This document shows positions 526 through 16,640 of a stretch of 32,000 bases of DNA, in pieces; the stretch's first letter is position 1, and every line of letters starts with the position of its first letter. The notes beneath the pieces are model-generated. The model did not search any database. It saw nothing but the letters and a program-made list of their open reading frames with translations, and had not been told where the DNA came from. A program made the translations under genes and the position numbers. The DNA lies in the NCBI GenBank assembly GCA_964551375.1, contig CAZKBG010000002.1, positions 45,558-77,557 on the forward strand, given 5' to 3'. Source of the stretch: an uncultured archaeon (GTDB taxonomy: Archaea; Iainarchaeota; Iainarchaeia; Iainarchaeales; JAAZKV01).

Positions 526-566
526 TAGCATCAACAAAGCTGGTTTTAAATATCAGTTTGATGCTA
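526..566 (+). promoter_or_regulatory. TATA-like box bracketed by a perfect 9-bp inverted repeat, upstream of collagen-like gene 1
   Basis: TAGCATCAA (526-534) and its exact reverse complement TTGATGCTA (558-566) flank TTTTAAATAT (544-553). The ATG at 580 lies about 30 nt downstream of the TATA-like box, which fits a leaderless or short-leader archaeal transcript. Confidence 0.4.
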
Positions 567-579
567 TGATTCAATTAGC

Positions 580-1257
580 ATGGTTTTTTTAGATAAGTTT
601 GACAAGTTGCTTTTATTATTTCTAGTTTTTGTGGTAGGAATATTTTTTGCCACGGCGGTAGATATCGACCCAAACATTCCAAGCCATCAATTCTCGCAGA
701 TTGCGGTTGGAGTGGAGAGAGTGGTGAATGACAATAATATTTTGTTAGCAAAATTCGGGGGAACAGGCGTAGCAACATGCCCTGACGGAACTGTTTTGAT
801 TTGGAATAATGTTTCTGGAACTTGGATTTGCGGAAGCGGAGTTCCAGGACCGCAAGGTCCTGCAGGCGTTCAAGGTCCGCAAGGACCAGTTGGTGCGACA
901 GGCGCAACAGGCCCTACAGGATATGCTGGAGCTACTGGTCCTCCTGGTCCGCAAGGAGCTCAAGGCCCTACTGGACCAATTGGTCCAAACGGCGCTACTG
1001 GCCCTGCCGGTCCAACAGGCGCGACAGGAGCACGGGGACCAACAGGAGCTACTGGCCCTGCCGGTCCAATGGGTTCGCCAACTTTTTGCTATTATGAAGG
1101 AGTAGCGTGGGGAATTGGGATGTCTTGCTTTGCGGGAAATCAATCTCCGGCTGCAACAACATCTTATGGAAATCTTATCCAATGTACAACAGGCGGATGG
1201 ACAAGCGGCTCAAGGGTATACGGTCCCGGAGGATACACAGCATATCCAATATGCTGA
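580..1257 (+). CDS. Membrane-anchored collagen-like repeat protein, paralog 1 (225 aa)
   Basis: ATG start. Four parts: an N-terminal hydrophobic anchor ([21 protein letters not shown]); a conserved ~50-aa head ([50 protein letters not shown]); 27 uninterrupted Gly-X-Y triplets; and a ~58-aa Cys-containing C-terminal domain ending YPIC. Paralogous to 1306-1995 and 2090-2782. Confidence 0.85.
838..1080 (+). repeat. Collagen-like Gly-X-Y coding repeat (27 triplets), locally GC-rich
   Basis: The tract [81 protein letters not shown] has Gly at every third residue without interruption. It contains a perfect 22-nt direct repeat (994-1015 and 1048-1069). Confidence 0.9.
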
Positions 1258-1274
1258 TATTAAAATTAAAAATT

Positions 1275-1290
1275 AAAAGTATTATTTATA
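1275..1290 (+). promoter_or_regulatory. BRE/TATA-like promoter element for collagen-like gene 2
   Basis: AAAAGTATTATTTATA lies about 20 nt upstream of ATG 1306. It shares the AAAGT-TTATT pattern seen upstream of most genes in the window. Confidence 0.35.
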
Positions 1291-1305
1291 GTGTTGGTTA
1301 TTTTT

Positions 1306-1995
1306 ATGGCAATGTTTGGAAATTTTAGCAAAATCGTTCTGATTTTTTTTGTGCTTGTGCTAAGCGTAGTATTTGTCGTTTCGACTGATGTGGTTATATC
1401 AAAACCTTATCATCAGTTTTCTGCAATAGCTGTCGGGATTGAAAAAGTTGCAGACAACAGCAATATACTTTTGGCAAAGTTTGGAGGAACAGGGCTGGTT
1501 AATTGCCCTGACAAAAATGTTTTGGTTTGGAATAATGTTTCAGGCACTTGGATTTGCGGAAATCCTCCTGCAGGAGTGCAGGGGCCTATGGGTCCGCAGG
1601 GGCCAGCGGGCATAGCAGGTCCGCAAGGACCAGTTGGCGCGACAGGCGCTACTGGAGCTAACGGCGCAACAGGTCCTCCAGGCGCCACAGGAGCAAGAGG
1701 ACCAACAGGTCCTGCAAATACCACTACTGGTCCACAAGGGCCAAAGGGATCTACTGGTGCAACAGGCGCTGCAGGTCCTGCTGGTGCAACAGGTCCGCAA
1801 GGCCCGGCGTTAGTAAGAGTAACATGCACTTACAATGGAAGACTTTACAGTCCAGGAGCAAAATGTTTTACAGGAAGCTGTCCTATTGCTACTACAAGCT
1901 CGGGACAATTAATTACCTGCAACTCCAACGGGACTTGGAGTTCGCCGACAACAGTATACGGCTGGGGAAATTCATGCCAGTATTCAATATGTTAA
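1306..1995 (+). CDS. Membrane-anchored collagen-like repeat protein, paralog 2 (229 aa from ATG 1306; the track ORF starts at GTG 1291)
   Basis: Starting at ATG 1306 gives [14 protein letters not shown]. This aligns residue for residue with [14 protein letters not shown] (paralog 3) and [14 protein letters not shown] (paralog 1). Same head domain ([53 protein letters not shown]). Gly-X-Y tract of 16 + 9 triplets split by NTTT. Six-Cys C-terminal domain ending YSIC. Confidence 0.85.
1573..1809 (+). repeat. Collagen-like Gly-X-Y coding repeat (16 + 9 triplets with one NTTT interruption)
   Basis: [79 protein letters not shown]. Nucleotides 1618-1649 match 874-905 of paralog 1 at 31 of 32 positions. 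Confidence 0.9.
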
Positions 1996-2050
1996 TATTT
2001 ATGGTGAAAAAATAGTTGCTGTGAATTTATGAAAGGAGTTAAATATTTGG

Positions 2051-2070
2051 AAAAAGTTTATTTGATAAAA
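2051..2070 (+). promoter_or_regulatory. BRE/TATA-like promoter element for collagen-like gene 3
   Basis: AAAAAGTTTATTTGATAAAA is centred about 29 nt upstream of ATG 2090. Confidence 0.35.
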
Positions 2071-2089
2071 TGATATTCGGGTTTTATTT

Positions 2090-2782
2090 ATGATAGGTTT
2101 TGGAAAAATTGATAAGTTGCTTTTAGTTTTTATGATTCTAGCCTTGGGAATATTTTTTGTCATGGCAGTAAATGTAAACACTTCAAAACCTTATCATCAG
2201 TTCATGGCAATTGCATCAGGAACTGAAAGAGTGATTAATGATTTTAATCAGCTGAACGCAAAGTTTGGCGGAACCGGAGTTGCGACATGCACTGATGGAG
2301 CAGTTCTAACATGGAGCAATGCTCAAAATTCATGGATTTGCGGAAGCGCAGCTACTGGAATTATAGGTCCGCAAGGTCCAGCCGGTCCTACTGGTCCTGC
2401 TGGTCCAACAGGCGCTACTGGCGCGCGCGGGGCTACTGGCGCGGCAGGGGCGCAAGGACCTATTGGCGCTACTGGACCAACAGGCTATGCTGGGGCAGCC
2501 GGTCCTACTGGTCCTGCTGGTCCAACTGGAAATACTGGCGCTACTGGCCCCGCTGGCGCTACTGGTCCTGCCGGCCCAGCTGGCCCTGGAGATCCTGGAA
2601 ATGTGTGTTATTATAACGGGCACACAGTTGCTGCTGGAACAACTTGCTTTGTCAGCGGAAGCTGCCCAATTGCATGGACTTCATATGGACAAACAGCAAC
2701 ATGTTATACAGGCGGAAGCTGGGGAAATTTTAGAACAGTAAGCGGAAGCGGCGGCTCAAGCTGCGCATATAATTTCTGCTAA
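2090..2782 (+). CDS. Membrane-anchored collagen-like repeat protein, paralog 3 (230 aa)
   Basis: ATG start. Hydrophobic anchor ([21 protein letters not shown]). Head domain ([53 protein letters not shown]). About 26 Gly-X-Y triplets. Six-Cys C-terminal domain ending YNFC. Confidence 0.85.
2357..2602 (+). repeat. Collagen-like Gly-X-Y coding repeat (~26 triplets)
   Basis: [82 protein letters not shown]. It contains a perfect 30-nt direct repeat at 2380-2409 and 2497-2526, offset 117 nt (39 codons, in frame). Confidence 0.9.
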
Positions 2783-2819: not shown

Positions 2820-5123
2820 TTATTCGTCTTTATCCTTCTTTTCAGGCTTTTCTTTTTGAAGCCTTGGAATCATAGTGGTTGAAATCCAATTCTTCCACTG
2901 CCCAAGAAGCTGGTCATAATTAATTTTGCCGTCCTCTTCAATCATAGTTTCTTTCATCAAAAGAAGCTTGTTGTTGCAAAGACTTGTGTGCTCCGCTTCA
3001 AGAAGACTTTTTAAATTAAGAGAATTTTTCTGCTCAACGAGGAATAGTTTTGCATTCGCCCTCAATCTGATTTCAGCCCAAATATCGCTCACAGTAAGCC
3101 CGCTTGTTTTCTGAATCTTTTGTAATAATTCGCTTTCTTTTAAATTATCTTCCATTAATTCAAGAGAATCTTTTGCGGCGTCAAAACTCATAAGCGCAAG
3201 CAGTCCGCCTTCAACTGAAGGGTCAGTATTCCAGTGCTTTTTAATTTCAGTAATTTCAACAACTCTTCTCTGTCTTCCAAGGCTTCCCTTAAACCTAATG
3301 GGTCTAGCAACAACAATCAAATCAGTCGCCTTAAATGAAGTTGTTGGAACTCCTAAATCGTTAACAACACGGTCCCAAACAGAATAAGCTGAATCAGCGT
3401 GAATTGTTCCAAGAACTACATTTCCCGCAGCTCCAACACGCATTGCTTCATACAAAACTTTTGCTTCCTTTGATCTTACTTCCCCGATAACAAGAGCAGA
3501 ATCACCTAAACGAAGAGCGGTACGAAGAGCTTCTGCAGGGTCAACTTCAGTTTCAGTTTTTGAAACACTAATCGGACTTCTTGTTTTAAGTCTTTGAATG
3601 TTAAATCCAATATCCTTCATATAAGGAACAGGAATTTCAAGAGTGTCTTCCTGAACAATAATTCTTGAGTTCTGAGGAATTTCAAGCATCATTGCCTGAA
3701 GAAGAGAAGTTTTTCCCGAGCCTCTTGAGCCCGCAATAAGAGTAGTCGCCTGCATATCAATAAAGAAGCTAATCATTCCTGCTGCAAGCGGATTAATGTA
3801 ACTCACATCAATAAACTGCTCAAGCGTCCAAGGCGTCATTTTATGCAATCTAAACGCAAAACCATAACTTGAAGGAGTAAGAGGAGGGCCGATTAACGCA
3901 ACTCTTGTTTCAAGGTCCGCCAAATCATAATCAAGAACAGGATGCGCTTCATCAAAAGGCCTTGAAGACATCGCTCTTAATTTTGAAATCAAACTATTTG
4001 CCTCAAATTCAGTGAAAGTAATATTTGTCTGGCACTGTCCGTACTCAGAATGAACAATATAAATTGGGCGCGAGCCAATCGGTGAGTCAATGTAAATATC
4101 GGTAATTCTTCTGTCGTTTAATAAAATTTCTAAAATACCATATCCAACAGTGTATCTTGCAACAACTTTTGAAAGAGAGGACATGTCATCAGGAGTAATT
4201 GCAATTCCGCTCCTTGCTGCAATTTCTTTTATTGTTGATTCGTACAAACGCTCAAAGTATCTTCTTGAAGTCGCAACAGTGCTTAAGGAAGTTCTTCCCG
4301 GCTTGTATGCTGAAACAACTTCCCTTGTTCTGCTCAAAACAAAATACTGGTCAGGCGCAAGCGAATACTCGGGCGGATTTATGTAATAAAGTTTCTCAAC
4401 TTTATTCGGGTCCGCAAAAACCTGAACGCTTGATTCTTTCACAGGATACTCGTCAAGAAGCTCAAAGTTTTCAATCCCTGAAAAAGAAAGTTTTGAGCCG
4501 ATAAAGCTTGGCTTAATATCAGCTTCAAAAAGCGCTTTGTAAATAATGCTTGTTTCAGGAACTTGCTGTAATTCAGTAAGAAGTTTTTTTGCTCTTATTA
4601 CAAGAAGAAGCGCGTCAAATCTGTTTCTTAAATCAACAAGAGTTGCGACATACGGTTCGGTGCACTGGATATACCCTGCTCCTGCCTGCTTTAATTTTTC
4701 TTCCTCTTTTCTTAATTCCTGAATTAAGCTAAGATATGCAAGAAGCGGATCATAATTAATCAAATCGCTTGCAATCCTTACTACCATCTGGTGGCGCTCT
4801 GAAAAAAAAGCCTCGCAGTCCTTTCCTGCCCTTCCAAGATGCCCAAAACTCCAAACACTCTCAACGCTTAATTTCTGCGCGAAGTTAGCCACTTCCATCA
4901 GCATTTTTGTCTGGACATCCTCGTAAACTCTCTCATACTTTTCGCTAAATACAATCTTGTCAGCTTCAACTTCCTGCAAAACTTTTATCACGTGGAAACG
5001 GCAGTGATGGTCTTCCCCGATTGAAGCGCTGTAAATACAGTTTTTACAGTCAAAAATAAGCGCACGCTTGCCGCCAATGTCTTTAACAACAAAGTCTCCA
5101 ACCTTGTATCCGCCAATCTTCAT
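2820..5123 (-). CDS. Type II/IV secretion system / archaeal type IV pilus-archaellum family ATPase (FlaI/PilB/GspE-like), unusually long at 767 aa
   Basis: Walker A GSRGSGKTS (aa 465-473, nt 3705-3731). Asp box RIIVQEDTLEIP. Walker B DSALVIGEVR. His box LGTIHADSA. An upstream N-domain motif RITDIYIDSPIGSRPIYIVHSEYGQCQTNITF is typical of FlaI-type ATPases. GGTGA (complement of 5130-5134) lies 6 nt upstream of the ATG. Confidence 0.9.
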   Translation of the reverse strand: MKIGGYKVGDFVVKDIGGKRALIFDCKNCIYSASIGEDHHCRFHVIKVLQEVEADKIVFSEKYERVYEDVQTKMLMEVANFAQKLSVESVWSFGHLGRAGKDCEAFFSERHQMVVRIASDLINYDPLLAYLSLIQELRKEEEKLKQAGAGYIQCTEPYVATLVDLRNRFDALLLVIRAKKLLTELQQVPETSIIYKALFEADIKPSFIGSKLSFSGIENFELLDEYPVKESSVQVFADPNKVEKLYYINPPEYSLAPDQYFVLSRTREVVSAYKPGRTSLSTVATSRRYFERLYESTIKEIAARSGIAITPDDMSSLSKVVARYTVGYGILEILLNDRRITDIYIDSPIGSRPIYIVHSEYGQCQTNITFTEFEANSLISKLRAMSSRPFDEAHPVLDYDLADLETRVALIGPPLTPSSYGFAFRLHKMTPWTLEQFIDVSYINPLAAGMISFFIDMQATTLIAGSRGSGKTSLLQAMMLEIPQNSRIIVQEDTLEIPVPYMKDIGFNIQRLKTRSPISVSKTETEVDPAEALRTALRLGDSALVIGEVRSKEAKVLYEAMRVGAAGNVVLGTIHADSAYSVWDRVVNDLGVPTTSFKATDLIVVARPIRFKGSLGRQRRVVEITEIKKHWNTDPSVEGGLLALMSFDAAKDSLELMEDNLKESELLQKIQKTSGLTVSDIWAEIRLRANAKLFLVEQKNSLNLKSLLEAEHTSLCNNKLLLMKETMIEEDGKINYDQLLGQWKNWISTTMIPRLQKEKPEKKDKDE

Positions 5124-5276: not shown

Positions 5277-5918
5277 ATGAGCATAAAGAAAAAAACCGCC
5301 AAACTTTCGCAAAAAAAAAGCGGGGCAGGGTTCATTCTTGACTATTTTAAAGAACAGCACAAAAAAATCAGAACCGACAAAAAGAAACAGTTTGTTTTCT
5401 TTGTTTTGGGATTTGTGCTTTCATACCTGATTCTTACAGTTTTAGTGAGCATAGTTCCTGATATTTACTATAAAGAAGCAGTTGGGGGAATGGTTAGAGG
5501 AGCGCTTGGAGCGCAAGGGATAAACACCACTTCAGTTGGCAATGTTGAATGCATGGAATTTTCATGGCTGAGCGACACTGCAAAAGGAAGCTGCTATTCA
5601 TTCACCGCAGAGGGAAAGAATATTGTAATTTCCTGGCTCTGCACGGGGATTTTAGAAATAATAATACTAATATGCGCAATAATTGCAAGCTTTGGAGTAA
5701 AATGGAAAGAAAAAGCTGTCGGGATTATAGCCGCAATAATTCTTGGAATAGTTTTTAACATTTTAAGAATAGGGATAACAATAAATCTCATCTTTTCGCA
5801 GGATGTTGCAACTGTTGAAATAGCCCATGATGCTTTATTTAGAATAATTTTGTTTGTTTACATAGCAGTCGTTTATATTATTTGGTTTTATTGGGCTGCG
5901 AACAAAAGCGAACGATAA
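5277..5918 (+). CDS. Short exosortase/archaeosortase-family membrane protein (213 aa)
   Basis: Polytopic membrane protein. The family signature triad appears in the expected order and context: Cys122 in ISWLCTGILEI (the C-S/T-G motif), Arg164 in FNILRIG (the N-x-x-R motif) and His184 in EIAHDALF. The Cys-Arg spacing is 42 residues, as I recall it for characterised archaeosortase A. Lys-rich cytoplasmic N-terminus. Confidence 0.65.
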   Translation: MSIKKKTAKLSQKKSGAGFILDYFKEQHKKIRTDKKKQFVFFVLGFVLSYLILTVLVSIVPDIYYKEAVGGMVRGALGAQGINTTSVGNVECMEFSWLSDTAKGSCYSFTAEGKNIVISWLCTGILEIIILICAIIASFGVKWKEKAVGIIAAIILGIVFNILRIGITINLIFSQDVATVEIAHDALFRIILFVYIAVVYIIWFYWAANKSER

Positions 5919-6006: not shown

Positions 6007-9000
6007 TTGATTTCAGAAAAGCTTGCGGGGTTTTACACAAAGCTTGAAGACAAATATTTTGATGTGCTTGACGCGCTTGACAAAAAAGGCATACCAGTTT
6101 ATGCTTATTCTGATTTTTTTGAAAATAAAGGAATACCAAGCTTTGTTGTGACAATAGCAATAATAGTCGCAATAATCGCAATTGTAACGCTTGCTCTAAC
6201 TTATCAAGGCGCTGATGTCGGCGAATTAACTTTATCATTAAAAGACAGCGACGGACAAAGCCTAAATGATGTTTCACTTGTAATAAAAGACGCAAAAGGA
6301 GAAGTGCTTTTTGAAGGAAGCGCAAGCGACGGAGAAACGATAAAATTAAACCGTGCGCTCTTTAACGGCGAAGAAATATCAATAACCGCCGAGGTGGAAG
6401 GATACCAGCCAAAAACAATCGCATTCACAGTCGGCGAAGAAAATAATGTTCCCAAATTATCATTTGACCCTTATTTTGAAGGAATTGAAGCTGCAGTAAG
6501 AGTAATTGATTCTGAAGGCTCAACTCCAGTATATGACGCAACAGTGCTTGCAAATTCAAGAGCAAATTTAAGCTACCAGTTTGTTTCAGACCAGAACGGA
6601 ATTTACAAAAAAAGCGGAGTTCCTGCCGGAGTAGATTTACTTCTAAAAATAACAGCAGAAGGATATGACAATTACGAGCAGACAGTTTCATTTAGAGCGG
6701 GCGAAGTAAGAGAAGTAATGCTTACTCCTTCAAATAATGGACTTGCGGCAGAAGTAAATATTGCAATTGATGTCTCAGGACCAGATGGCAAATCAATTGA
6801 CCAGGCAAAAGTAACTGTGTACGACAAAAGAAATTCAACAGTTCTATTTAGCAGCTACACAACAGACGGAACAGTGGTTGCAAAATTACTTTCAGGAGTT
6901 CCGCTAAGAATTGTTGTTGAAAAACAAGGGTACTTAACTTATGATTCTGATGTAGACGGCGGAGGAGTAACTGTACGAACTGACGGATTAAGATTCCCAG
7001 TTAAACTAAGACTTGGGGGGCAGAAATTACACGTAACTGTGCTTGATTCACAGTCAGCATTCGGCGTTGAAGGCGCAACAGTTCAATTGTTTAGAGAAAC
7101 AGGAGAATTAATTTCAAGCCAGGTTTCAAAAGTTTCAGGAGCTGAATTTAGCGGAATTGATTCAAATTTAACAATTTACGTTACAGCATACAGAGACGGA
7201 TACCTTCCCACAAGAGAGAAAGTAAGAGTAAGCATCACTGAAGAAGTAAAAATACTGCTCAATAAAGTAACTTCAAATAATTCAACAAGACTTGACATTT
7301 ACACGCTTGACAAGCTTGGAAAAACAGTTAACGGCGTAAAAATTTTAATAATTGATATTAACGGCTCGGAAAAAGTGCCTTATGGAATTCCAGAAATTGA
7401 AACAAGCGTTGCGGGATACGTTAATGCGACAGTTGCAATCGGAAAAACATACTCTGTAAAAGGATACACTGATGTTCTTGACGGAGCAATTGATGTTGAA
7501 GTAAAACAGGGCGAAATAGAAAAGAAAGTTTACTTAAAAATGCTGAAAAAATCAAACGTTTTAGAAATGAAATTCATTGACGTGTTTGGAAAAAATGTAA
7601 AAGGCAAATCCACAATATCAGGGCTTGACGGGACAATATTATTTGACGGACCGATTTTAGAAGGAAGCATATTCTTTGACGCGCAGCAAAAAGACGTAGT
7701 TGAAGTAATGGTTACAAAAGATGACGGAAATGTATTCACTGAAAATGTCACAGTAAAAGGAAAAGACTATGTTGAAGTAATGGTGTATTCAAAAGACTCC
7801 GCAGCTCTTTCTCCAACAATTGAATTTATTGGAATTGAAGACGAAAGTGGAAACGTAGCTGATGGAATAATTCCAGGCGCATTCTTCTGGGCAAAATTTA
7901 ATGTAACATTCCCAAGGTCAGCAACAAAAGGCGGAGTTCACTTTAGAGTAGGGCAGGACGATGTTGAATTTGTTGAATCAGAAAAATTTGCGTTATATGA
8001 TTTAAGCATGCAAAATGCGACAGTTGATTACTCTTTATCCTATACTCCTTTGCCAGCCCCAGGAAACGAAATAGTTGACAGGGCGAATAAAGGAACTCAA
8101 GGAAGCAAAAACAAGTGGATTGAAGGAGTTGTAAGCCAGCCCCAAGGAACATACACTGCAAAAATTAAAGTAAGAGCTGAAGACTTTTTAGCGGGAAAAG
8201 CAGAGTTAAAATTCAGAGCATGGGCAATAGTTGGCTCGGATTATTACAGAATGCCCCAAGACGCAGATCTTTTATCAAAAGGATACAGCGATAAAAAAGC
8301 GGCATTATACGCGCTGACAAGCACTCAATCAGTTACAATTTACGAATCCCTTCCTGAATGCGCGGATAATTTATGCATGGCAGTTAATTTTGTTGACGAA
8401 GACGAACAATTCCTAAATGAAAAAGGATTTGAAGCATGGAAAGGAAAACAATACGCAATTGAAATTGAATTATCAGCAAAAGAACAGGAATATGCGCAAG
8501 TTACAGTAACAACTGATGCCAATATTGATTTTAGCTCCTCGCAGACAACCAATTTTGGATTTGTAAAAAGAGGAGAGCAGATTGGGCAAGTAAAGAAAAC
8601 AGCAGCAGCTGCAGTGACAATAGCTAAAGGCGGAAAACAGAAAGTAAGATTCTACTTCACAGCAAACAAAGTAGGCGCGGCTTCAATTAATGTAAGCGCA
8701 ATAGGAAAATCAACAGTAGTAAAAGATGTTTTATTTAACGTAGTGGAAGAAAAATCACTTCTTATAGAATTATCAGAAAATCAGGTAATGGCAGGAAGAA
8801 ACTTTACAGTAAGAGTGACTGACTCGGGACTTAAAGGAGTAGAAAATGCTCTTGTAAAAATAATTGACAGCGAAGGAAAAACCGCAAAAAGCATTCTTGG
8901 CGACGGAACTGACGGAAAAGGAAAAAACGGATACTATAGAATACAAAATAATTTAGGAGTGGGCCTTTACACTGTTGAAGTATCACTAACAGGATATGCT

Positions 9001-12000
9001 ACACAAGCGCTTCCTTTGATGATTGCGACTCAAAATGTGCTTGCATTCAAAGAAGAACTTGAAGCAAAACTTCCAGTAAATCAAAAAAGCCTTGTAATAA
9101 CAGAAGCGCTTACAAACGAATCAGAATTTACAGTTCAAAATATTACAATCCAGACTGAATCAGAAAATGAAAAAGAAAAAACTGTTTCAAAAACAAGCAC
9201 AAGCACTACTGCAACTGACAGTTTCAAAGTAGTTGCTACCACAACCCCTGCATTAAGCAAAGGACAAAAACAGCCAGTGCAGATTACAGTAAGCTACCTT
9301 GGAGATTTAACAGAAAGCGCTGATGAAACAACCACAATTTCAATTTCAGGACTTGTTGAAGGAAAATTCCTCACAAAAACAACAGCAAAACTCCACATGA
9401 TGTATAATAAAAAACTTGACCCGACATGCCTTGAAGTAAAACCATCAAACGCGGTTCTAAATCTGCTTGGAAGCCCAGGCTCAACTGATACTACAACACT
9501 TGAAATTACAAATAACTGCGAAACAGCTCTTTACATTGCAAAAAGAATAAGAGAAACAACAACAGGCGCGCTAAGAGGAATGCAGCTTGACGCTGATAAT
9601 ATAGACCTTCAGCCAGGCGAAACAAAGAACCTTACAATTAGCGCGGTAAACCAGATAGCAAGAGGAGCCTCAAGAGAGCAATCCTTCGGATTTGAACTTG
9701 TTTATGACTCAAACGCAATTAAGAAAACAATTCCAGTAACAGTAAAAACAATTAATCCGGTATTTGCGCTTAATTACCCTGCGCAAATAACTCTATACTT
9801 AGCGCAGACAAATGTGAATGAAAAAGCAACTGCTGCACAGCCGATATTTATCTCAAATAGGTCATCCTTCCCAATTGATAATATACAATTAGCGCAAGGA
9901 ACTGATTCACTATCTCAGGCAAATGTAAAACTCACAATCGAACCAACTGCAACTGTAAGCCTCCTTCCTGGACAGGCAATATCCCCTCCAAAAATATTAT
10001 TCGCTTCAGCAAGCTCAAGAATAACCGAGCCGGTAAAAGCAAGAATTGACATAAGCGGAACAATGGGAAACCTTGAAAACAGGTCATGGCAGAACGACAA
10101 TTACGGCTATTCAAATAATTACACAAATTCTTCAAGATCAATAAATACTTACTCGCAGGCAAACTCAAGAAATTACTATAATAATTACTACGGAAGCACA
10201 GGGCAAATGCTTGGCTCAATAGATGTAACAGTATTCTATTCAGGATACAACTGCTTAACAGGACACGTTACTGAATCATTCTTCTTCCCAAGCGAAGGCG
10301 GGGAAATAGGAAAATTAATTAAAATAGTAAACGGATGCGCTGAACCAGTTACAGTAGTGGGAGTGTCGCAGGCATCTCAGGCAAAAAGCCAGACAATCTT
10401 TGGAATGCCAGCAGTAATGACTTCAATTATGATGGGAGTGCCAAGAGTAAGCGTAGCTCCAGGACAAATGATACAAGTTCCAATGACAATTAGAACAGCA
10501 ATACCAAATATAAAAAGACAAAATTACCAAGTAGTGCTTGAAGCAATTTCAGAAGTAAGCCAAACTCCAATTACTTCAAAACCATTCCCAGTAAATATTT
10601 CATCAGGAAACAGCACAAGAGAAGAGCATGTTAAAGGCGCTCCTGTAAAAGTAAAAGTATGCGGCTCGCAGACAGAAACAGAAGTAGTAATGCCAAAAAT
10701 AGTTGAAAACGCAAACTGCGCAGAAGGATACTGCGATGCAAAAAACGCTGTGAAATACATTGCCGCAAAAGTTGAAAAAGTAATACAAAACGCAAGATCC
10801 CAAGGATACTCATACAAAAACACAATTGAAAATGAAGTAATACCGTGCCAAGTAACAGGAATATGCACATTCGAAGAACTGAATATGGTTCCTGAAGAAT
10901 TTGACTTATACTTACAGAACGACAGAATCACTCCAGAACTGCTTGAAGCTGAATTAAACAAAGTTCAATACGAAGGCGCAAACAATACTCCATACAGAGA
11001 AACTGTTGGAACAACAAACGGATTAGTAGTAGAGCCAAAGTATGTTGAATTATCAGTAATCAGAGGGTTCATACTAACAGGATATTATAGAAGAATATTC
11101 CTTGACCCAGCATTTACTGGATGCGGATATTATAGAATTGCAATAAACGGAGCATTCCCAGCAGGACCTCAAGGGCTTGACTCAATGTCCCCAGTACTTT
11201 CAATAAATGCAGTTCCTCAAAATTCAAGAAGCTCCCTATTAACAAACGAGTGCGTTTCATCAATACAAAATATTGAAAACTTCAATCCAATAGACACAGG
11301 ACTTGAGCCTGGAAGAGAATTCGGCACATGGATGACAACAATAACCACTGATTCACAGCTAAAAGACCTCGCAACACAAATATCAAAATCAAGATACAAA
11401 TCAGAAAAGAGAGTGGCATCGGGAATCGGAAACAAAGTTGAATTAAAAGTTGGAGCATTAACTGGCATACTTGCGCAGGCATGCATAAGCGGAAATGACA
11501 GAAGAACAATTTCAGTTACAATTGCGGACACAATGCTAAGAACAAATGACGCTGCGACAAAAACTGCGTTTAACACAGCAGTTGTAAAAATGATTTCAGA
11601 CGCATTGAACGGCTCATTTGGGGACAACTGCCTTGTGAGAAGCGGAGATTCATACTCATGCGTTAACTTAACTGACTTGCCAAGCTCAATAGGCAAAAGA
11701 CAGCTTGCTCTCCTTAACACTTCTATTAACTTTATTTCCCAAAACGGGGGGTGCACAACTGGAACAGTGTACTCAAATGTTCCTGAATCGCTCAACTTTG
11801 AAGTGACTCCAAATTCAGTTAAAAAGGAATTTATTGGAATAAGAAGAATTTCAATAAGCGCTGATGATGCTTTAAACGGTCCGATTGCCACAATTTCAAA
11901 AACACCAACTGGAAATACTACAGTTGGAACAACTACAAATGCTTCCTCAACTTCATCAGCACAGCCTGCTGTTTCAACTCAACCACCTACTCCAACTCAG

Positions 12001-14883
12001 CCTTCTGCTCCGACTCCACCAGCAGGAGGAAATACATCTGGAAGAACTCCTCCGACTCAGCCGCCCGCTCCGACTCCGCCAACTGCATCTAATGCAAATT
12101 TAAATTCACAACTGCCAGCTTACTCTTCAAAAGCAATTGAAACAGGCGAAATGTACTCCAAAACATTCTTTGGAGCGACTCAAAACCAGTCTTTAGATAA
12201 GCCGATGGTGCTAAAGGAAAATCCGGCTTCTTCGGATTATAGATATTATAGAAACATAAAAATCTGCGCAGAACCTGGCGACTCACAATTCAGCGGAGTA
12301 GACCCACAGCTTGCATACATACAAGCAAATGGAGTGCAGTTTGATGTTGAAGTTCTAAATAGAGAAGCAAAAGAAAATAAAGGAACCTCAAAACAGACTA
12401 TCACAATTTCAACAGGAACAATGCACCCTGATGATTTAATTACCGCAATCGCAGACATTACAAGCAGACGCATTGAGCCAGGAAAGCCTTATTACTTAAC
12501 AGCAATGTGGGAAGGAGGACCTGACGCATTAAACCTTGAAGCTTATAAAAATTCATTATTAAAACAGGGAAAACTGAAAGGAACAAGCATTGCTGGAGAC
12601 GAAAAAACAGACGGAACACTTGATGCGCAGACAAAAGGAAAAGCTGCTGCATTTAATAAATATCTAATGAATTGCGCAGTATCTTCTGCGATATGCAACG
12701 GACTGCTCGGCCCTGCTAATGCAGTTCTTGGAGTTCTTGGAGACTGTGGAATTCCAGCTACTCTTGTGCTAAGAGAAGATATGTACGCCGCTTACCCTTC
12801 ATCAAGAAGCGTGGGAGAATTAATTTCAGGCGCTGTTGGAACAATAATCGGCGCATTAAATACTGTATTTGAAACAGTTGGACTTGGAAAAGACTTGATT
12901 CCAAAAAATCTTTTCGGAGATGAAGGGCTTGGAAGGCTTGCTCCTCAAAGCTGGTCTGAAGCAAATGTAAAAACAAAAGCAATAGTTGAAGGAACTATAG
13001 GCGGACTTGGAGCAGAAGCTCTTAGAGCGGCTCCGCTTGGATTGTCAAGATTTGGAGGCGCATTAAATAAACAGAGCATAAGCGCTTACTCAACAGAAAT
13101 AGGGACGCTTTACGAAAAGCAGATGCAGACTTTGCTTGAGTCTTCAATAAATCCTGCATTAACTACTGCTGAAAAAGAGGCAATGAAAAGAACTGCCGGA
13201 CAAATTGCAAAAGAATATGGACAGACTGTTTCAGAAAGCTTTTCTAAGAACCTGCTTGACCAATACGACGCAGCATGGAAAAGAAAAGGATTCCCGTTGA
13301 ATTTTGAGAGCAACCTTTATGCTACTGCAGTTCCGGATACTGAAAAAGCAGTTGGGGAAGCGCTTTCAAAATCAAAAATAAGCACAGGAGAATTCCTTGC
13401 TAAAAAATCATCAACAGGAGTGACAAACATTGAGAGATTATTCAACGGAACATCAGTGGCTGATATAAAATCAAAAGGACTAATTGCGCCTGCAAGCGAC
13501 CTTGAAACAATTTTTAACAGACAATTCAGCCTTGATGCAGGAACATTCAATTCGAAAATAATGGAAAAATTCAAAAGCTACGGGTATACTGAAGGCTCAT
13601 ATGTTACAAAGAATCTCACTTCAGACGATTTGAGACCGATTGTTGAAGATTTAATTAAAGAAGACTTAAAAGTTACTGACGGAGTTGCGCGAAAGAAAAT
13701 TGTTGATGATATTCTTAGAAAAATGGCTACAGGTTCAACAACATCTACGGGGGCATACACTCCAAAGAATTATGCTGCTGCAACAGAAACAATTTCAAAA
13801 GGAACTAAATTTTATTCAGGAGGGGCATCTCCTCAAACAATACTATCTGATGTAAGGTCTGCTGCTGATGATGTGCTTAACGATTATTTGATAAAGAGCG
13901 GAAAAATGGCTGATTTTGCAAAAACTGCAGGCGCAGAGCTTGACAAAACAATAGCCGGCGCATTGTCTGATGATGTTTCAAAAGTTGGCAAAGCTTCAAA
14001 GTGGAAAGCCGCAGCACAAGGGGTTTTTACAAAGCGCTTTGCGGGGATGGCTGCAACAGGAATTTTATGCGGAGTAGCATCAAACGCAATTGGAATGAAT
14101 GCTTATGACTCACAGCTTCAGACAACAATAAAAGAAGAAGGAAAAAGAATTGTTGAACTTCCAAATATAATACTTGAAAAAGGACAGACTTACCTGCTAA
14201 AGAAAAGCGACAAAGAAGTAAACGGCAAGAATCCTTACTCAATGACAAAAATTGCAAACCAGTCAGATTTGACTACCCCAGTTCTTGGAAAACAGCCAGA
14301 AAGAATTTCAAGCCAGCCTGACAACAAAGACAAGCTTCCTGAACAGAGACCGCTTACTGCTTACCCAATAGTAACAAACAGAACCGTTGCAATCAAACTT
14401 GCGACAAGCAAAGAAGGCTCGGTATTTATGAAAACAAATGTTGGAAGAGATACTGCAAAAATACAGGAATCTGATCCGTTCATTAGATTCTCAAATCCAG
14501 AATTCATCGCGCTGGTATTCAAATACACAGGCATGATTGGATTTGACTGCAAGCAAAAACCTGCTGCTTCTGCAAATGACACTGTGGCTATGGGAGCAGA
14601 GCCGCTTGCTATTGCAATAGGAACAACAAAAGCAGCATTGAGAGAATATACTTCTGAAGGTGTGAGCAGGGAATATAATGGAGAAAGCACATGGCTCAAA
14701 GAGAAACTCCGAATTGCGCTTGAAGCGAGAAAAAGCACAGCTGATAAAATTGACTTGAGCGTGGCAAAGAAAGTATTCCCAAAAGCAAATCAGGAAGATT
14801 TGCAGATATTCGTTGACGATGTTGCATTCTGGGAAAAAGCATTTACTCAATCTTCTCAAGAGTCGGCTAACTACTGCCCATAA
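6007..14883 (+). CDS. Giant surface protein 1 (2958 aa): N-terminal signal-anchor, multiple carboxypeptidase-regulatory-like/PEGA/Ig-like beta-sandwich repeats, P/T linker, ~930-aa C-terminal region with Gly-zipper hydrophobic segments
   Basis: Uninterrupted 8.9-kb ORF with a TTG start. The N-terminus ISEKLAGFYTKLEDKYFDVLDALDKKGIPVYAYSDFFENKGIPSF plus a TM helix (aa 45-66) is paralogous to the other two giants. Repeated modules follow the pattern xLTLxhxDxxGxxhxxhxhxhxD...G...h....GY, for example ELTLSLKDSDGQSLNDVSLVIKDAKGE...EVEGYQPKTIAFTV. Many N-x-S/T sequons. Confidence 0.85.
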   Translation: MISEKLAGFYTKLEDKYFDVLDALDKKGIPVYAYSDFFENKGIPSFVVTIAIIVAIIAIVTLALTYQGADVGELTLSLKDSDGQSLNDVSLVIKDAKGEVLFEGSASDGETIKLNRALFNGEEISITAEVEGYQPKTIAFTVGEENNVPKLSFDPYFEGIEAAVRVIDSEGSTPVYDATVLANSRANLSYQFVSDQNGIYKKSGVPAGVDLLLKITAEGYDNYEQTVSFRAGEVREVMLTPSNNGLAAEVNIAIDVSGPDGKSIDQAKVTVYDKRNSTVLFSSYTTDGTVVAKLLSGVPLRIVVEKQGYLTYDSDVDGGGVTVRTDGLRFPVKLRLGGQKLHVTVLDSQSAFGVEGATVQLFRETGELISSQVSKVSGAEFSGIDSNLTIYVTAYRDGYLPTREKVRVSITEEVKILLNKVTSNNSTRLDIYTLDKLGKTVNGVKILIIDINGSEKVPYGIPEIETSVAGYVNATVAIGKTYSVKGYTDVLDGAIDVEVKQGEIEKKVYLKMLKKSNVLEMKFIDVFGKNVKGKSTISGLDGTILFDGPILEGSIFFDAQQKDVVEVMVTKDDGNVFTENVTVKGKDYVEVMVYSKDSAALSPTIEFIGIEDESGNVADGIIPGAFFWAKFNVTFPRSATKGGVHFRVGQDDVEFVESEKFALYDLSMQNATVDYSLSYTPLPAPGNEIVDRANKGTQGSKNKWIEGVVSQPQGTYTAKIKVRAEDFLAGKAELKFRAWAIVGSDYYRMPQDADLLSKGYSDKKAALYALTSTQSVTIYESLPECADNLCMAVNFVDEDEQFLNEKGFEAWKGKQYAIEIELSAKEQEYAQVTVTTDANIDFSSSQTTNFGFVKRGEQIGQVKKTAAAAVTIAKGGKQKVRFYFTANKVGAASINVSAIGKSTVVKDVLFNVVEEKSLLIELSENQVMAGRNFTVRVTDSGLKGVENALVKIIDSEGKTAKSILGDGTDGKGKNGYYRIQNNLGVGLYTVEVSLTGYATQALPLMIATQNVLAFKEELEAKLPVNQKSLVITEALTNESEFTVQNITIQTESENEKEKTVSKTSTSTTATDSFKVVATTTPALSKGQKQPVQITVSYLGDLTESADETTTISISGLVEGKFLTKTTAKLHMMYNKKLDPTCLEVKPSNAVLNLLGSPGSTDTTTLEITNNCETALYIAKRIRETTTGALRGMQLDADNIDLQPGETKNLTISAVNQIARGASREQSFGFELVYDSNAIKKTIPVTVKTINPVFALNYPAQITLYLAQTNVNEKATAAQPIFISNRSSFPIDNIQLAQGTDSLSQANVKLTIEPTATVSLLPGQAISPPKILFASASSRITEPVKARIDISGTMGNLENRSWQNDNYGYSNNYTNSSRSINTYSQANSRNYYNNYYGSTGQMLGSIDVTVFYSGYNCLTGHVTESFFFPSEGGEIGKLIKIVNGCAEPVTVVGVSQASQAKSQTIFGMPAVMTSIMMGVPRVSVAPGQMIQVPMTIRTAIPNIKRQNYQVVLEAISEVSQTPITSKPFPVNISSGNSTREEHVKGAPVKVKVCGSQTETEVVMPKIVENANCAEGYCDAKNAVKYIAAKVEKVIQNARSQGYSYKNTIENEVIPCQVTGICTFEELNMVPEEFDLYLQNDRITPELLEAELNKVQYEGANNTPYRETVGTTNGLVVEPKYVELSVIRGFILTGYYRRIFLDPAFTGCGYYRIAINGAFPAGPQGLDSMSPVLSINAVPQNSRSSLLTNECVSSIQNIENFNPIDTGLEPGREFGTWMTTITTDSQLKDLATQISKSRYKSEKRVASGIGNKVELKVGALTGILAQACISGNDRRTISVTIADTMLRTNDAATKTAFNTAVVKMISDALNGSFGDNCLVRSGDSYSCVNLTDLPSSIGKRQLALLNTSINFISQNGGCTTGTVYSNVPESLNFEVTPNSVKKEFIGIRRISISADDALNGPIATISKTPTGNTTVGTTTNASSTSSAQPAVSTQPPTPTQPSAPTPPAGGNTSGRTPPTQPPAPTPPTASNANLNSQLPAYSSKAIETGEMYSKTFFGATQNQSLDKPMVLKENPASSDYRYYRNIKICAEPGDSQFSGVDPQLAYIQANGVQFDVEVLNREAKENKGTSKQTITISTGTMHPDDLITAIADITSRRIEPGKPYYLTAMWEGGPDALNLEAYKNSLLKQGKLKGTSIAGDEKTDGTLDAQTKGKAAAFNKYLMNCAVSSAICNGLLGPANAVLGVLGDCGIPATLVLREDMYAAYPSSRSVGELISGAVGTIIGALNTVFETVGLGKDLIPKNLFGDEGLGRLAPQSWSEANVKTKAIVEGTIGGLGAEALRAAPLGLSRFGGALNKQSISAYSTEIGTLYEKQMQTLLESSINPALTTAEKEAMKRTAGQIAKEYGQTVSESFSKNLLDQYDAAWKRKGFPLNFESNLYATAVPDTEKAVGEALSKSKISTGEFLAKKSSTGVTNIERLFNGTSVADIKSKGLIAPASDLETIFNRQFSLDAGTFNSKIMEKFKSYGYTEGSYVTKNLTSDDLRPIVEDLIKEDLKVTDGVARKKIVDDILRKMATGSTTSTGAYTPKNYAAATETISKGTKFYSGGASPQTILSDVRSAADDVLNDYLIKSGKMADFAKTAGAELDKTIAGALSDDVSKVGKASKWKAAAQGVFTKRFAGMAATGILCGVASNAIGMNAYDSQLQTTIKEEGKRIVELPNIILEKGQTYLLKKSDKEVNGKNPYSMTKIANQSDLTTPVLGKQPERISSQPDNKDKLPEQRPLTAYPIVTNRTVAIKLATSKEGSVFMKTNVGRDTAKIQESDPFIRFSNPEFIALVFKYTGMIGFDCKQKPAASANDTVAMGAEPLAIAIGTTKAALREYTSEGVSREYNGESTWLKEKLRIALEARKSTADKIDLSVAKKVFPKANQEDLQIFVDDVAFWEKAFTQSSQESANYCP
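10087..10206 (+). repeat. Tyr/Asn/Ser-rich low-complexity segment inside giant protein 1
   Basis: WQNDNYGYSNNYTNSSRSINTYSQANSRNYYNNYYGSTGQ. Confidence 0.7.
11980..12087 (+). repeat. Pro/Thr-rich linker with an internal duplication inside giant protein 1
   Basis: QPPTPTQPSAPTPPAGGNTSGRTPPTQPPAPTPPTA. The unit PTQP(S/P)APTPP occurs twice. It separates the beta-sandwich-rich part from the C-terminal region. Confidence 0.75.
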
Positions 14884-14995: not shown

Positions 14996-15029
14996 AGAAT
15001 TGATTTGATTGTCAAGTTTAGTTGATTTT

Positions 15030-16496
15030 ATGATATATCCAAAAATTAGCCAGAGAGGATTTAACATGTTCTCCGCAATAGTTGCGGTTCTACTAATCAT
15101 GGCTGGAGTGGTAATAACAAACACGCTAATTTCAACCGAAGAAAAAACAAATCGGCAAGTTTACTCAATGCTGAATAATTATCAATTAACCGATGCCGCC
15201 GCAGTTGCAAGAGCAGATGCGCTTCAGAACTTTAATTATGCATTTAGAGTGCAGATGGAAAATTATCTTACTTACGACAAATATGAAATGGGAGAATATG
15301 CTGATGATGAAACAAGCGGACTTGGATTATTTACTATAACCACTGGAAGCGAAGCTTTCACATTCACTGAAATGAAAGCAGCATTTGAACAATCGGTTCT
15401 GCAAAAATCAGGCCCGGGGGACTTTAATTCAGTGCTTGAATACGTTGCGGGAAACACGGTTAATCAATTTCAGGAAAGAACATACGGAAGATTCAGCGTT
15501 TACTTAAGCGAACGATCCGAAGACAGAGCGGGAGCGCAGGCAAAAGTAAAAGATGTATTATACGCGGCAACTGCTCCTCATATGAATAACTTATTTGATG
15601 TAGTTGAATGCGGAGAGAACGAATGCAAGAATGGCTCATTTTATTTTAACATTCCATTAAACGAAATATCTGACTCGCAGTACGAATCACTGCCAAGAAT
15701 TGTAGTAAAAGACCTTGTTACTCATGAAGAAATAAAAATGCCAATCCTTCCAAGAACAAATATTAGAATTTACATGCCGCTGCGATTTTTCAAAGCAATA
15801 TTTGAAGCAAGAAAATTTGCAATTATAATGAGAGCGCAGCATAATGCACTTCAAAGCTACCGGCTTGGATTCTGCGATCCTGGATGCGCTCCAAGAACAC
15901 ATCCAGTGAATGCCTCAACTGGCTCTTATGGAAAGAACTGCCCCCAGACTGATTCAGGGGATGCTTCAACAGTAGCATTATCAGCAGCTCCGCTTGGAAT
16001 AACTCAATACCAAGCAGGGGGAACAAATGCTGGCTCGCTTGGACTTAAAGCCCACGCTACTGAACTCTTATGTTCCTATGCTGGCGGAATCTTTGACACC
16101 ACTGACACCACGTTCATGCCTTTTTCTAATTCACTAAAAGCAAAGGACCCCCAAATGGTTGATGTGGCAAACTGCCCCATTCATGCAATTACTGTGGAAC
16201 TTCCTAATGCAAAACCTATGTTTGAAATGACAGGGCTTACAATTTCCTACGCTGATGGGCTTGAAAAATATTTAAGATGCGGATGGATAATGGGAATCAC
16301 TTCACAAGTTGTTTTTAAAGAGACAAATCCGCTTTACATTGTTAGAGGAACATATGATCAGGGAAAAGTTGACTTATTTAAAATACAAATAAAGGATGTG
16401 GCTTTCCCTGCGCAGTGGAGCGCGGACGGAACTTACCCTACTCCGACAGCAAAATGCAAAGCAACAGGAAGCGCATGCGAGACATACACCTCTTAA
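15030..16496 (+). CDS. Large secreted protein with a class III (type IV pilin-like) signal peptide (488 aa from ATG 15030; the track ORF starts at TTG 15009)
   Basis: The N-terminus is MIYPKISQRG/FNMFSAIVAVLLIMAGVVITNTLIS. It has a short basic leader, Gly at the putative -1 position and then an uninterrupted ~22-residue hydrophobic helix, as in archaeal prepilins. The rest is Cys-containing and hydrophilic with no recognisable motif. Confidence 0.6.
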   Translation: MIYPKISQRGFNMFSAIVAVLLIMAGVVITNTLISTEEKTNRQVYSMLNNYQLTDAAAVARADALQNFNYAFRVQMENYLTYDKYEMGEYADDETSGLGLFTITTGSEAFTFTEMKAAFEQSVLQKSGPGDFNSVLEYVAGNTVNQFQERTYGRFSVYLSERSEDRAGAQAKVKDVLYAATAPHMNNLFDVVECGENECKNGSFYFNIPLNEISDSQYESLPRIVVKDLVTHEEIKMPILPRTNIRIYMPLRFFKAIFEARKFAIIMRAQHNALQSYRLGFCDPGCAPRTHPVNASTGSYGKNCPQTDSGDASTVALSAAPLGITQYQAGGTNAGSLGLKAHATELLCSYAGGIFDTTDTTFMPFSNSLKAKDPQMVDVANCPIHAITVELPNAKPMFEMTGLTISYADGLEKYLRCGWIMGITSQVVFKETNPLYIVRGTYDQGKVDLFKIQIKDVAFPAQWSADGTYPTPTAKCKATGSACETYTS

Positions 16497-16640
16497 GCGC
16501 AAAATCAGTATTTTTTGAATTAAGAAAATGATTTTTCGCCAATAGATGCGTGTTAATCGCCATCAAGATAAGATTAATAAAGGGAAGAATGATATAATTA
16601 TTATAGTGAATAAGTTTTATTCAACTTATAAGTGATGAAA

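Follow-up and report, generated by a model that had tools for sequence, protein, structure and literature searches.

We have analysed a stretch of 32,000 nucleotides from the genome of an uncultured archaeon (contig CAZKBG010000002.1; hereafter the window), near the beginning of which three adjacent genes on the + strand code for paralogous collagen-like proteins. On balance, these genes probably encode exported trimeric fibres with a collagen stalk, displayed on or released from the envelope of a DPANN archaeon of the Diapherotrites/Iainarchaeota type, and we consider that the locus represents a genuine and hitherto uncharacterised variant, in an archaeon, of the collagen-like fibres of prokaryotes. 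A preliminary description of this DNA had proposed a tandem triplet of membrane-anchored collagen-like proteins (225, 229 and 230 amino acids, aa), all with the same four-part architecture, within an archaeal genome; the triplet, its architecture and its archaeal setting have been confirmed by the analysis presented here. The genes located upstream on the same contig are archaeal and code for a wyosine radical-SAM enzyme, HerA, a proteasome subunit and aCPSF1. Since the best named relatives of this aCPSF1 (86% identity) belong to metagenome-assembled genomes (MAGs) of Candidatus Diapherotrites/Iainarchaeum, the host can be taken, on the evidence of its protein sequences, to be a DPANN archaeon of Diapherotrites (Iainarchaeota) type.

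Common architecture of the three collagen-like paralogs

The first paralog lies at 580-1257 (+; 225 aa), the second at 1306-1995 (+; 229 aa; identical to the family member that we have labelled P0001) and the third at 2090-2782 (+; 230 aa; AlphaFold2, or AF2, model m7eb8a36e8b24). All three are open reading frames (ORFs) whose products score well above the gathering score of the Pfam Collagen model PF01391 (56.7, 41.7 and 48.1 bits, with E values of 2e-15, 1e-10 and 1e-12, respectively, versus 27.2 bits), and alignment, Pfam matches and the counting of triplets concur in dividing each of them into a hydrophobic N-terminal segment, a conserved head, a tract of Gly-X-Y triplets and a small C-terminal domain, or tip. 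The exact protein of paralog 1 is also present in public collections, on an NCBI contig of 96,961 bp. For paralog 2 we have preferred the ATG at 1306 as the start codon, because it gives the N-terminus that is common to the whole family in our alignment; the GTG at 1291 is a possible alternative.

Over their full length the three proteins are pairwise identical in 55-59% of their residues, the values for the individual parts being 31-50% in the signal segment, 52-62% in the head, 63-70% in the collagen tract and 42-49% in the C-terminal domain. At the DNA level their head regions are 66-72% identical and long identical tracts are absent, on which grounds we have rejected a recent duplication of the genes, or gene conversion between them. 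A terminator-like element, consisting of a 10-bp inverted repeat and a run of T (475-509, +), stands just 3' of the aCPSF1 gene and ahead of paralog 1; it is followed by an A/T-rich, TATA-like element, TTTTAAATAT, at 544-553 (+), some 31 nt ahead of the start codon of paralog 1, to which we would ascribe a promoter role by inference only. Together, the two elements suggest that paralog 1 may be expressed as a separate and nearly leaderless transcript, and each of the three genes has an A/T-rich spacer of its own. The antisense and off-frame ORFs found inside the repeats, such as that at 745-1182 (-), are by-products of the GC-rich repetitive sequence.

The collagen tract of paralog 1 (838-1080, +; aa 87-167) contains 27 uninterrupted Gly-X-Y triplets, with Pro at X in 15 of the 27, Thr at Y in 10 and a single charged residue. 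That of paralog 2 (1573-1809, +) is formed by 16 and 9 triplets on the two sides of a four-residue break, ANTT (1717-1728, +), which includes an N-x-T sequon, while paralog 3 (2357-2590, +) has 26 triplets in an unbroken series. The earlier count of 25-27 triplets is thus correct, even if the uninterrupted condition that had been assigned to paralog 1 applies to paralog 3 as well. Overall, Pro occupies about 55% of the X positions and Thr about 38% of the Y positions, and charged residues are limited to 1-2 per tract of ca. 80 aa; this composition would be compatible with a stable helix lacking hydroxyproline, of the Thr/Pro type rather than of the charge type. Among the triplets of these tracts we find TGA, TGP and QGP, which are over-represented in archaeal collagen-like proteins (PMC11923368). 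The content of guanine plus cytosine (GC) rises to 63.4, 64.6 and 66.2% in the tracts of paralogs 1, 2 and 3, respectively, as compared with 38-40% in the head and 39% in the window, so the tracts are indeed the sharply GC-rich islands noted before, a consequence of the codons that Gly, Pro and Ala demand. In the AF2 model of the monomer, most of the collagen part has a predicted local distance difference test (pLDDT) score of less than 50, which is what an isolated chain would be expected to give.

The C-terminal Cys-rich domains are located at 1081-1254 in paralog 1 (+; a beta domain with 4 Cys), 1810-1992 in paralog 2 (+; 6 Cys) and 2591-2779 in paralog 3 (+; 6 Cys). They are 58-61 aa long and have Cys as their very last residue, as previously described for all three proteins, which end in PIC, SIC and NFC. 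In the AF2 model of paralog 3 the tip is a small beta-rich domain, most blocks of which have pLDDT values of 83-89. Searched alone, the tip had no match in Pfam, NCBIfam, PHROGs or the sequences of the PDB, and no significant fold match in the PDB or BFVD.

The head of paralog 1 (658-837, +; aa 27-86, about 60 aa) includes the sequence LLAKFGGTG and a hairpin bracketed by Cys67 and Cys84. Alignment of the three paralogs verifies that KFGGTG and both Cys are invariant, and a profile built on this region retrieves the family discussed in the following section. What is not sustained is the idea of a compact domain: the head consists of a short conserved linker followed by the first copy of a Cys-bracketed beta-hairpin repeat of 18 residues, with the consensus C-x-D-G-x-V-L-x-W-x(5,6)-W-x-C. 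AF2 models in it a short helix at about 37-42 and one hairpin at 72-85, with pLDDT values of 58-77. Like the tip, the head alone had no match in Pfam, NCBIfam, PHROGs or PDB sequences, nor any significant fold match in the PDB or BFVD.

A family with a constant head, interchangeable shafts and variable tips

An exhaustive search of 1.84 billion representative proteins with the head profile returned 38 hits, among which ca. 18 cluster representatives share residues 1-86 (related proteins and loci are designated here by P and L numbers). The members that we have looked up belong to clusters of one or two proteins, unnamed or annotated as 'Uncharacterised protein [uncultured archaeon]', and in the data seen the family is rare and confined to uncultured archaea. 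A genome carries from two to four paralogs: four lie on a single 946-kb contig, the MAG GCA_964544205.1 has four genes distributed over three loci, and a 99.7-kb contig has two. Beyond the head the family proteins diverge completely, while the N-terminal module remains constant. Most relatives have a stalk of 2-4 hairpin copies, and collagen is present in 5 of the 19 aligned members; the collagen-bearing relatives, P0007, P0009 and the second gene of L006, have 14-16 triplets. In P0009 and the second L006 gene, the head is followed by two further hairpins, by 14-16 triplets and then by the same C-terminal domain as in the window proteins. The tips, which in the three paralogs are 42-49% identical, are unrelated across the wider family. 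Since relatives carry hairpins, collagen or both behind the same head, collagen and hairpin repeat look like interchangeable shaft modules, mounted on a constant head and completed by variable tips.

The hairpin has a distribution of its own. In the form C-x-D-G-x-[VI]-L-x-[WY]-x(5,6)-W-x-C it occurs in 4-17 copies within giant proteins of 1.3-4.7 thousand residues (P0019-P0033), at least two of which are encoded on contigs of 3.9-6.0 Mb that are presumably bacterial; two of these giants, P0024 and P0027, matched no repeat family in Pfam. A form of the hairpin devoid of Cys matches phrog_9627 strongly and tail-fibre PHROGs weakly, and in P0025 it stands ahead of a C1q-like domain. The accumulation of up to 17 copies in the giants, the matches to phrog_9627 and tail-fibre PHROGs and the C1q-like neighbour in P0025 argue for the fibre nature of the Cys-bracketed hairpin, which appears to be an undescribed and widespread fibre repeat.

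The apparent rarity of the family needs to be qualified. Pattern scans require near-exact motifs and therefore underestimate its spread: with genome contigs they found nothing for the head patterns of the window proteins and one MAG with the family patterns, and with JGI metagenomes they found none in a first scan and three loci in a second one. A word-indexed protein search with the alignments of the head and C-terminal domain (60-86 aa) returned nothing; as the collection does contain exact copies of paralogs 1 and 2, this outcome is not evidence of absence. Moreover, the short-read contig L001 (Logan SRR12133403_186900) breaks at its 3' end within paralog 3, just past its head, and L006 breaks at its 3' end just past the collagen tract of its second gene. 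Because short-read contigs break in or beside the collagen-bearing genes, these are likely to be under-represented or truncated in metagenome assemblies, making the family look rarer than it is. Of the former statement that such proteins are rare and uncharacterised in archaea, what stands is that homologs are rare and unannotated; archaeal collagen-like proteins in general have already been catalogued in bulk (PMC11923368).

Proposed export, assembly and role of the fibres

In functional terms, the parts of these proteins can be arranged along a fibre. The N-terminal segment, with its n-h-c pattern, would direct Sec export and leave the C-terminus outside, a cut probably occurring after the conserved [AVT]-x-[AS] motif that ends at residue 26. 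The head, with its linker and disulfide-bracketed hairpin, may form a common module for docking and registration at the cell-proximal end, as its constancy suggests. Three chains, registered by the head, the tip or both, could then wind their ca. 80 residues of Gly-X-Y into a triple helix, as their composition suggests; its length would be about 23 nm (81 residues x 0.286 nm), and O-glycosylation of Thr may stabilise it, as in BclA. The Cys-rich tip of 58-61 aa would sit distally, where it might nucleate trimerisation, bind a ligand or do both; ligand recognition is suggested by the divergence of the tips. By analogy, we infer that the fibres most probably serve in adhesion or in contact between cells, each genome having several variants of the tip at its disposal. 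A dependence on direct contact with other cells is generally assumed for DPANN archaea, of whose attachment structures few have been described.

Several observations weigh against fibres of this kind. The AF2 models, which are of monomers, give most of the collagen part a pLDDT of less than 50 and the head one no higher than 58-77. With 1-2 charged residues per 80 aa, the tracts are almost uncharged and their stability is uncertain without modification. The uncharged N-terminal stretch of 18-23 residues is long enough to span a membrane, and the conservation of the N-terminal motif F-[SG]-x-F-D-K exceeds what one would expect of an ordinary signal peptide. Finally, the loci have no operon partner in common and no docking target has been recognised, so that the adhesive role is argued by analogy only.

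How are the fibres held by the cell? In paralog 1 the N-terminal segment (580-657, +; aa 1-26) is formed by MVFLDKFDK, a hydrophobic core and ATA, and the family at large has M-x-x-F-[SG]-x-F-D-K followed by a hydrophobic core of 14-17 residues, with Gly at -7. If this segment were left uncleaved, the products would be type II membrane proteins, with three helices tethering each trimer in the cytoplasmic membrane and the N-terminus (M-x-F-S-K-F-D-K) in the cytoplasm. Such an arrangement, which we regard as credible even if less probable, draws on the uncharged stretch of 18-23 residues, on the continuous transmembrane-type helix that AF2 models at 6-27 with pLDDT of about 90-95, and on the first nine residues, which across the family are conserved at least as well as the head, an odd property for a peptide to be discarded; besides, DPANN cells may have no wall on which a released fibre could fasten. 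However, all 19 aligned members have [AVT]-x-[AS] at residues 24-26, that is A, V or T at -3 and A or S at -1, with Gly at -7 and the polar residues N-V-D directly after, and this is the classical pattern of signal peptidase I. Furthermore, the N-terminal segment is the least conserved part among the three paralogs of the window (31-50%). The hydrophobic stretch would be long enough for a signal anchor too, but the n-h-c pattern, in which all 19 members have small residues at -3 and -1, tips the balance slightly towards a cleavable Sec signal peptide and away from a permanent anchor, and the membrane anchorage proposed in the preliminary description is consequently doubtful, the segment reading as well or better as a signal to be cut.

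The presence of exactly three tandem paralogs on the same strand creates another question: Do their products co-assemble as the chains of one heterotrimer, in the manner of C1q? The spacing from the head Cys to the first C-terminal Cys is nearly equal in the three proteins (84, 88 and 87 residues), and the genes have diverged (66-72% identity in the DNA of the head) and so have been kept as distinct. On the other side, relatives exist with a single collagen-bearing gene per locus, such as P0007, whose gene lies between RIO-kinase-like and KH-domain genes, and L006 combines one collagen-bearing copy with a collagen-free member; this argues that homotrimers suffice and that a heterotrimer is not required. 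The four-residue break, restricted to paralog 2, would set the chains out of register, and the A/T-rich spacer owned by each gene adds to these points. We consider a heterotrimer of the three chains to be rather unlikely.

No more likely, in our opinion, is that the fibres serve as a structural component of the envelope or matrix, for example an S-layer-associated spacer, a sheath or an extracellular matrix, instead of as adhesins. Their uncharged, Thr-rich tracts resemble those of the BclA nap, and their genes adjoin an envelope cluster comprising a FlaI-like ATPase, an archaeosortase-family protein and three giant surface proteins. Yet tips that vary by as much as they do, from 42-49% identity between the paralogs to entirely different domains across the family, fit ligand recognition better than a uniform lattice, and the family is low-copy and patchily distributed. 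Pushing the adhesive interpretation further, one may combine all these elements into a modular fibre system specific to DPANN archaea, in which a constant head for export and docking carries shafts of collagen or disulfide-stapled hairpins and hypervariable Cys-rich tips, the tandem chains form a C1q-like heterotrimer and the fibres recognise and hold partner or host cells, possibly together with the FlaI-like ATPase, the archaeosortase-like protein and the giant surface proteins of the neighbouring envelope cluster; taken as a whole, this combination seems improbable.

Weaker still is the interpretation of the three proteins as type IV pilin-like subunits assembled by the adjoining T2SSE/FlaI-like ATPase (2820-5123, -), whose gene abuts the triplet. 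In its favour, L008 has a complete operon for a type IV pilus at a distance of 4.6 kb from a family member, and 18 of the 19 members have G or S as residue 5. But directly ahead of the hydrophobic stretch one finds K, with D at -2, and not a [KR]-[GAS] cleavage motif, whereas the pilin proper of a related genome has MIAKKG|QGTIEY; the Class_IIIsignal model of Pfam has no match; the ATPase of the window is without a T2SSF partner; and no ATPase appears in the other contexts of relatives that we have examined, although several of these contexts extend over no more than 3-5 kb. We have thus rejected this very unlikely reading on the signal motif and on the inconsistent context. Equally rejected is a role as substrates of an archaeosortase (PGF-CTERM and similar), for the three proteins have neither a C-terminal transmembrane segment nor a sorting signal, despite the archaeosortase-family gene at 5277-5918. 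Least probable of all, and likewise rejected, is that we are dealing with the fibre genes of a virus or provirus, remnant or active, analogous to collagen-like tail fibres: the many matches to tail-fibre PHROGs (down to E 5e-23) and the distant relatives of the hairpin in phage proteins would be in keeping with it, but the matches of the window proteins cover the collagen tract or begin at most ca. 27 residues upstream of it, the head and the C-terminal domain scanned separately match no PHROG and no phage tail-fibre family, relatives were absent from IMG/VR (scans) and from 50,697 phage genomes (tblastn), BFVD gave no significant fold match, and the flanks contain housekeeping genes and no prophage gene or anything else viral.

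Genomic neighbourhood and comparison with known systems

The loci of relatives are flanked by genes for thermosome, topoisomerase VI, RIO kinase, NUDIX, Cdc6, SepF, HisRS and PolB proteins, and a search for a conserved operon partner among the neighbours of eight related loci found none that was consistent. In the window, the triplet is followed by the FlaI/TadA-like T2SSE ATPase of 767 aa, which has an N-terminal extension of ca. 300 aa and FlaI as its best NCBIfam match (147 bits, well under the cut-off of 550); an adjoining gene for a T2SSF platform is absent, and the ATPase that belongs to the complete pilus operon of L008 (802 aa) is only 30% identical to that of the window. The next gene (5277-5918, +; 213 aa) codes for a protein of the exosortase/archaeosortase family (TIGR04178, 36 bits versus a cut-off of 23); its candidate catalytic residues lie in WLCTG, NILRIG and IAHD. 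An obvious sorting signal composed of C-terminal motif, transmembrane segment and basic residues is absent from all proteins of the window. A tripartite signal of archaeosortase-processed kind is seen in a Cys-rich secreted protein of 395-397 aa, encoded directly upstream of a family member in L006 (1458-2645) and L008 (8772-9965), which ends in PDNNIF, a transmembrane helix and a KK-rich tail.

Three giant proteins complete the cluster, at 6007-14883 (2958 aa), 16632-24212 (2526 aa; aligned from its MKMG at 16635) and 25644-32000 (more than 2100 aa, running off the end of the window). They have in common an N-terminal motif of ca. 50 aa (GIGESLKGIYY..EDKWY.F.D...KGIPSF), then a transmembrane helix and CarboxypepD_reg domains; the sequence KG|IPSF with the hydrophobic residues after it resembles a prepilin-type site placed behind an unusually long leader. 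Giant CarboxypepD_reg proteins recur near family members, by domain or syntenic position, in the window, L010, L011 and L014, although their adjacency is not conserved; the giant of L010 bears the same N-terminal motif as those of the window, and L014 lacks the extra family member found in L010. Between the first two giants, a gene at 15009-16496 (+) codes for a 495-aa protein without any match in Pfam or NCBIfam, the N-terminus of which, MIYPKISQRG|FNMFSAIVAVLLIMAGVVI, has the appearance of a class III (type IV pilin-like) signal. An ORF of 494 aa is also located near the giant gene of L011.

In function, the nearest analogues are BclA, the Scl/Lcl adhesins and the collagen-like fibres of phages, but the window proteins fall outside each of these families by the non-collagen domains that define them. 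BclA, a collagen-like glycoprotein of the Bacillus exosporium, has a short N-terminal region for targeting and attachment, an uncharged, Thr-rich series of Gly-X-Y (GPT-like, with Thr in Y) and a C-terminal globular tip, and forms a trimeric hair-like nap. The window proteins share with it the succession of a targeting region, an uncharged Thr-rich tract of comparable length and a C-terminal tip. However, the tip of BclA is the C1q/TNF-like BclA_C domain of ca. 130 aa, whereas theirs is a Cys-rich beta domain of 58-61 aa with no Pfam match, and no C1q or BclA_C match was found in the three proteins at E values up to 0.1 or 1. In addition, BclA has no Sec signal, attaches to the basal layer of the exosporium by N-terminal proteolysis and belongs to another domain of life. 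With the collagen-like adhesins Scl1/Scl2 of streptococci and Lcl of Legionella the likeness lies in an exported, prokaryotic collagen-like stalk that projects a globular domain, and the corresponding NCBIfam models match the collagen part; the scores of 43-57 bits are far below the cut-offs of 325-500 for Scl1/Scl2 (NF038329, NF038330) and Lcl (NF046116), so the proteins are not members of these families. They also differ from Scl in having neither LPXTG nor a C-terminal transmembrane segment, in their reversed polarity, since the variable domain of Scl is N-terminal and its anchor C-terminal, and in their almost uncharged tracts, Scl2 being charge-stabilised.

In the collagen-like tail fibres of phages (for example phrog_6320, 819, 5073 and 1806), too, a shaft of collagen joins a conserved end, used for attachment, to a distal end that varies; over the collagen part they match the window proteins with E values of about 1e-19 to 5e-23. 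This similarity is limited to the Gly-X-Y tract or a few flanking residues, though, and the window genes have a cellular context and an N-terminal export signal. Complement C1q is encoded by three adjacent genes (A, C and B), each chain having an N-terminal segment with Cys, a collagen region of ca. 81 residues, interrupted in one of the chains, and a C-terminal globular domain. Three adjacent paralogs with a Cys-containing N-terminal segment, ca. 80 residues of Gly-X-Y interrupted in one chain and a C-terminal domain reproduce this plan, but without the gC1q domain and without any homology outside the repeat.

Collagen repeats in an archaeon are not new, because archaeal collagen-like proteins (InterPro IPR008160) have already been catalogued and analysed in bulk for the statistics of their triplets (PMC11923368). 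We found no literature on collagen-like proteins in Diapherotrites. To our knowledge, moreover, no archaeal collagen-like protein has been experimentally characterised. The present finding overturns nothing; it extends a known class of proteins into a new lineage and with new flanking domains, and provides a compact, expressible set of three ectodomains of ca. 200 residues, with which one could test whether a true archaeal triple helix forms without hydroxyproline or charge pairs, whether its chains associate as hetero- or homotrimers and which ligands the tips bind. In comparison with the archaeal catalogue (PMC11923368), and also with Pfam, NCBIfam and PHROGs, what has not been described before is the family of heads and tips and its modular stalk of hairpins or collagen. 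The novelty is thus a family with a conserved head, interchangeable hairpin and collagen shafts and variable Cys-rich tips, which in the data seen is present only in uncultured archaea. In evolutionary terms, the swapping of collagen and Cys-bracketed hairpin as shafts on one and the same head constitutes a natural case of modular fibre evolution, parallel to that of phage tail fibres, within a cellular genome.

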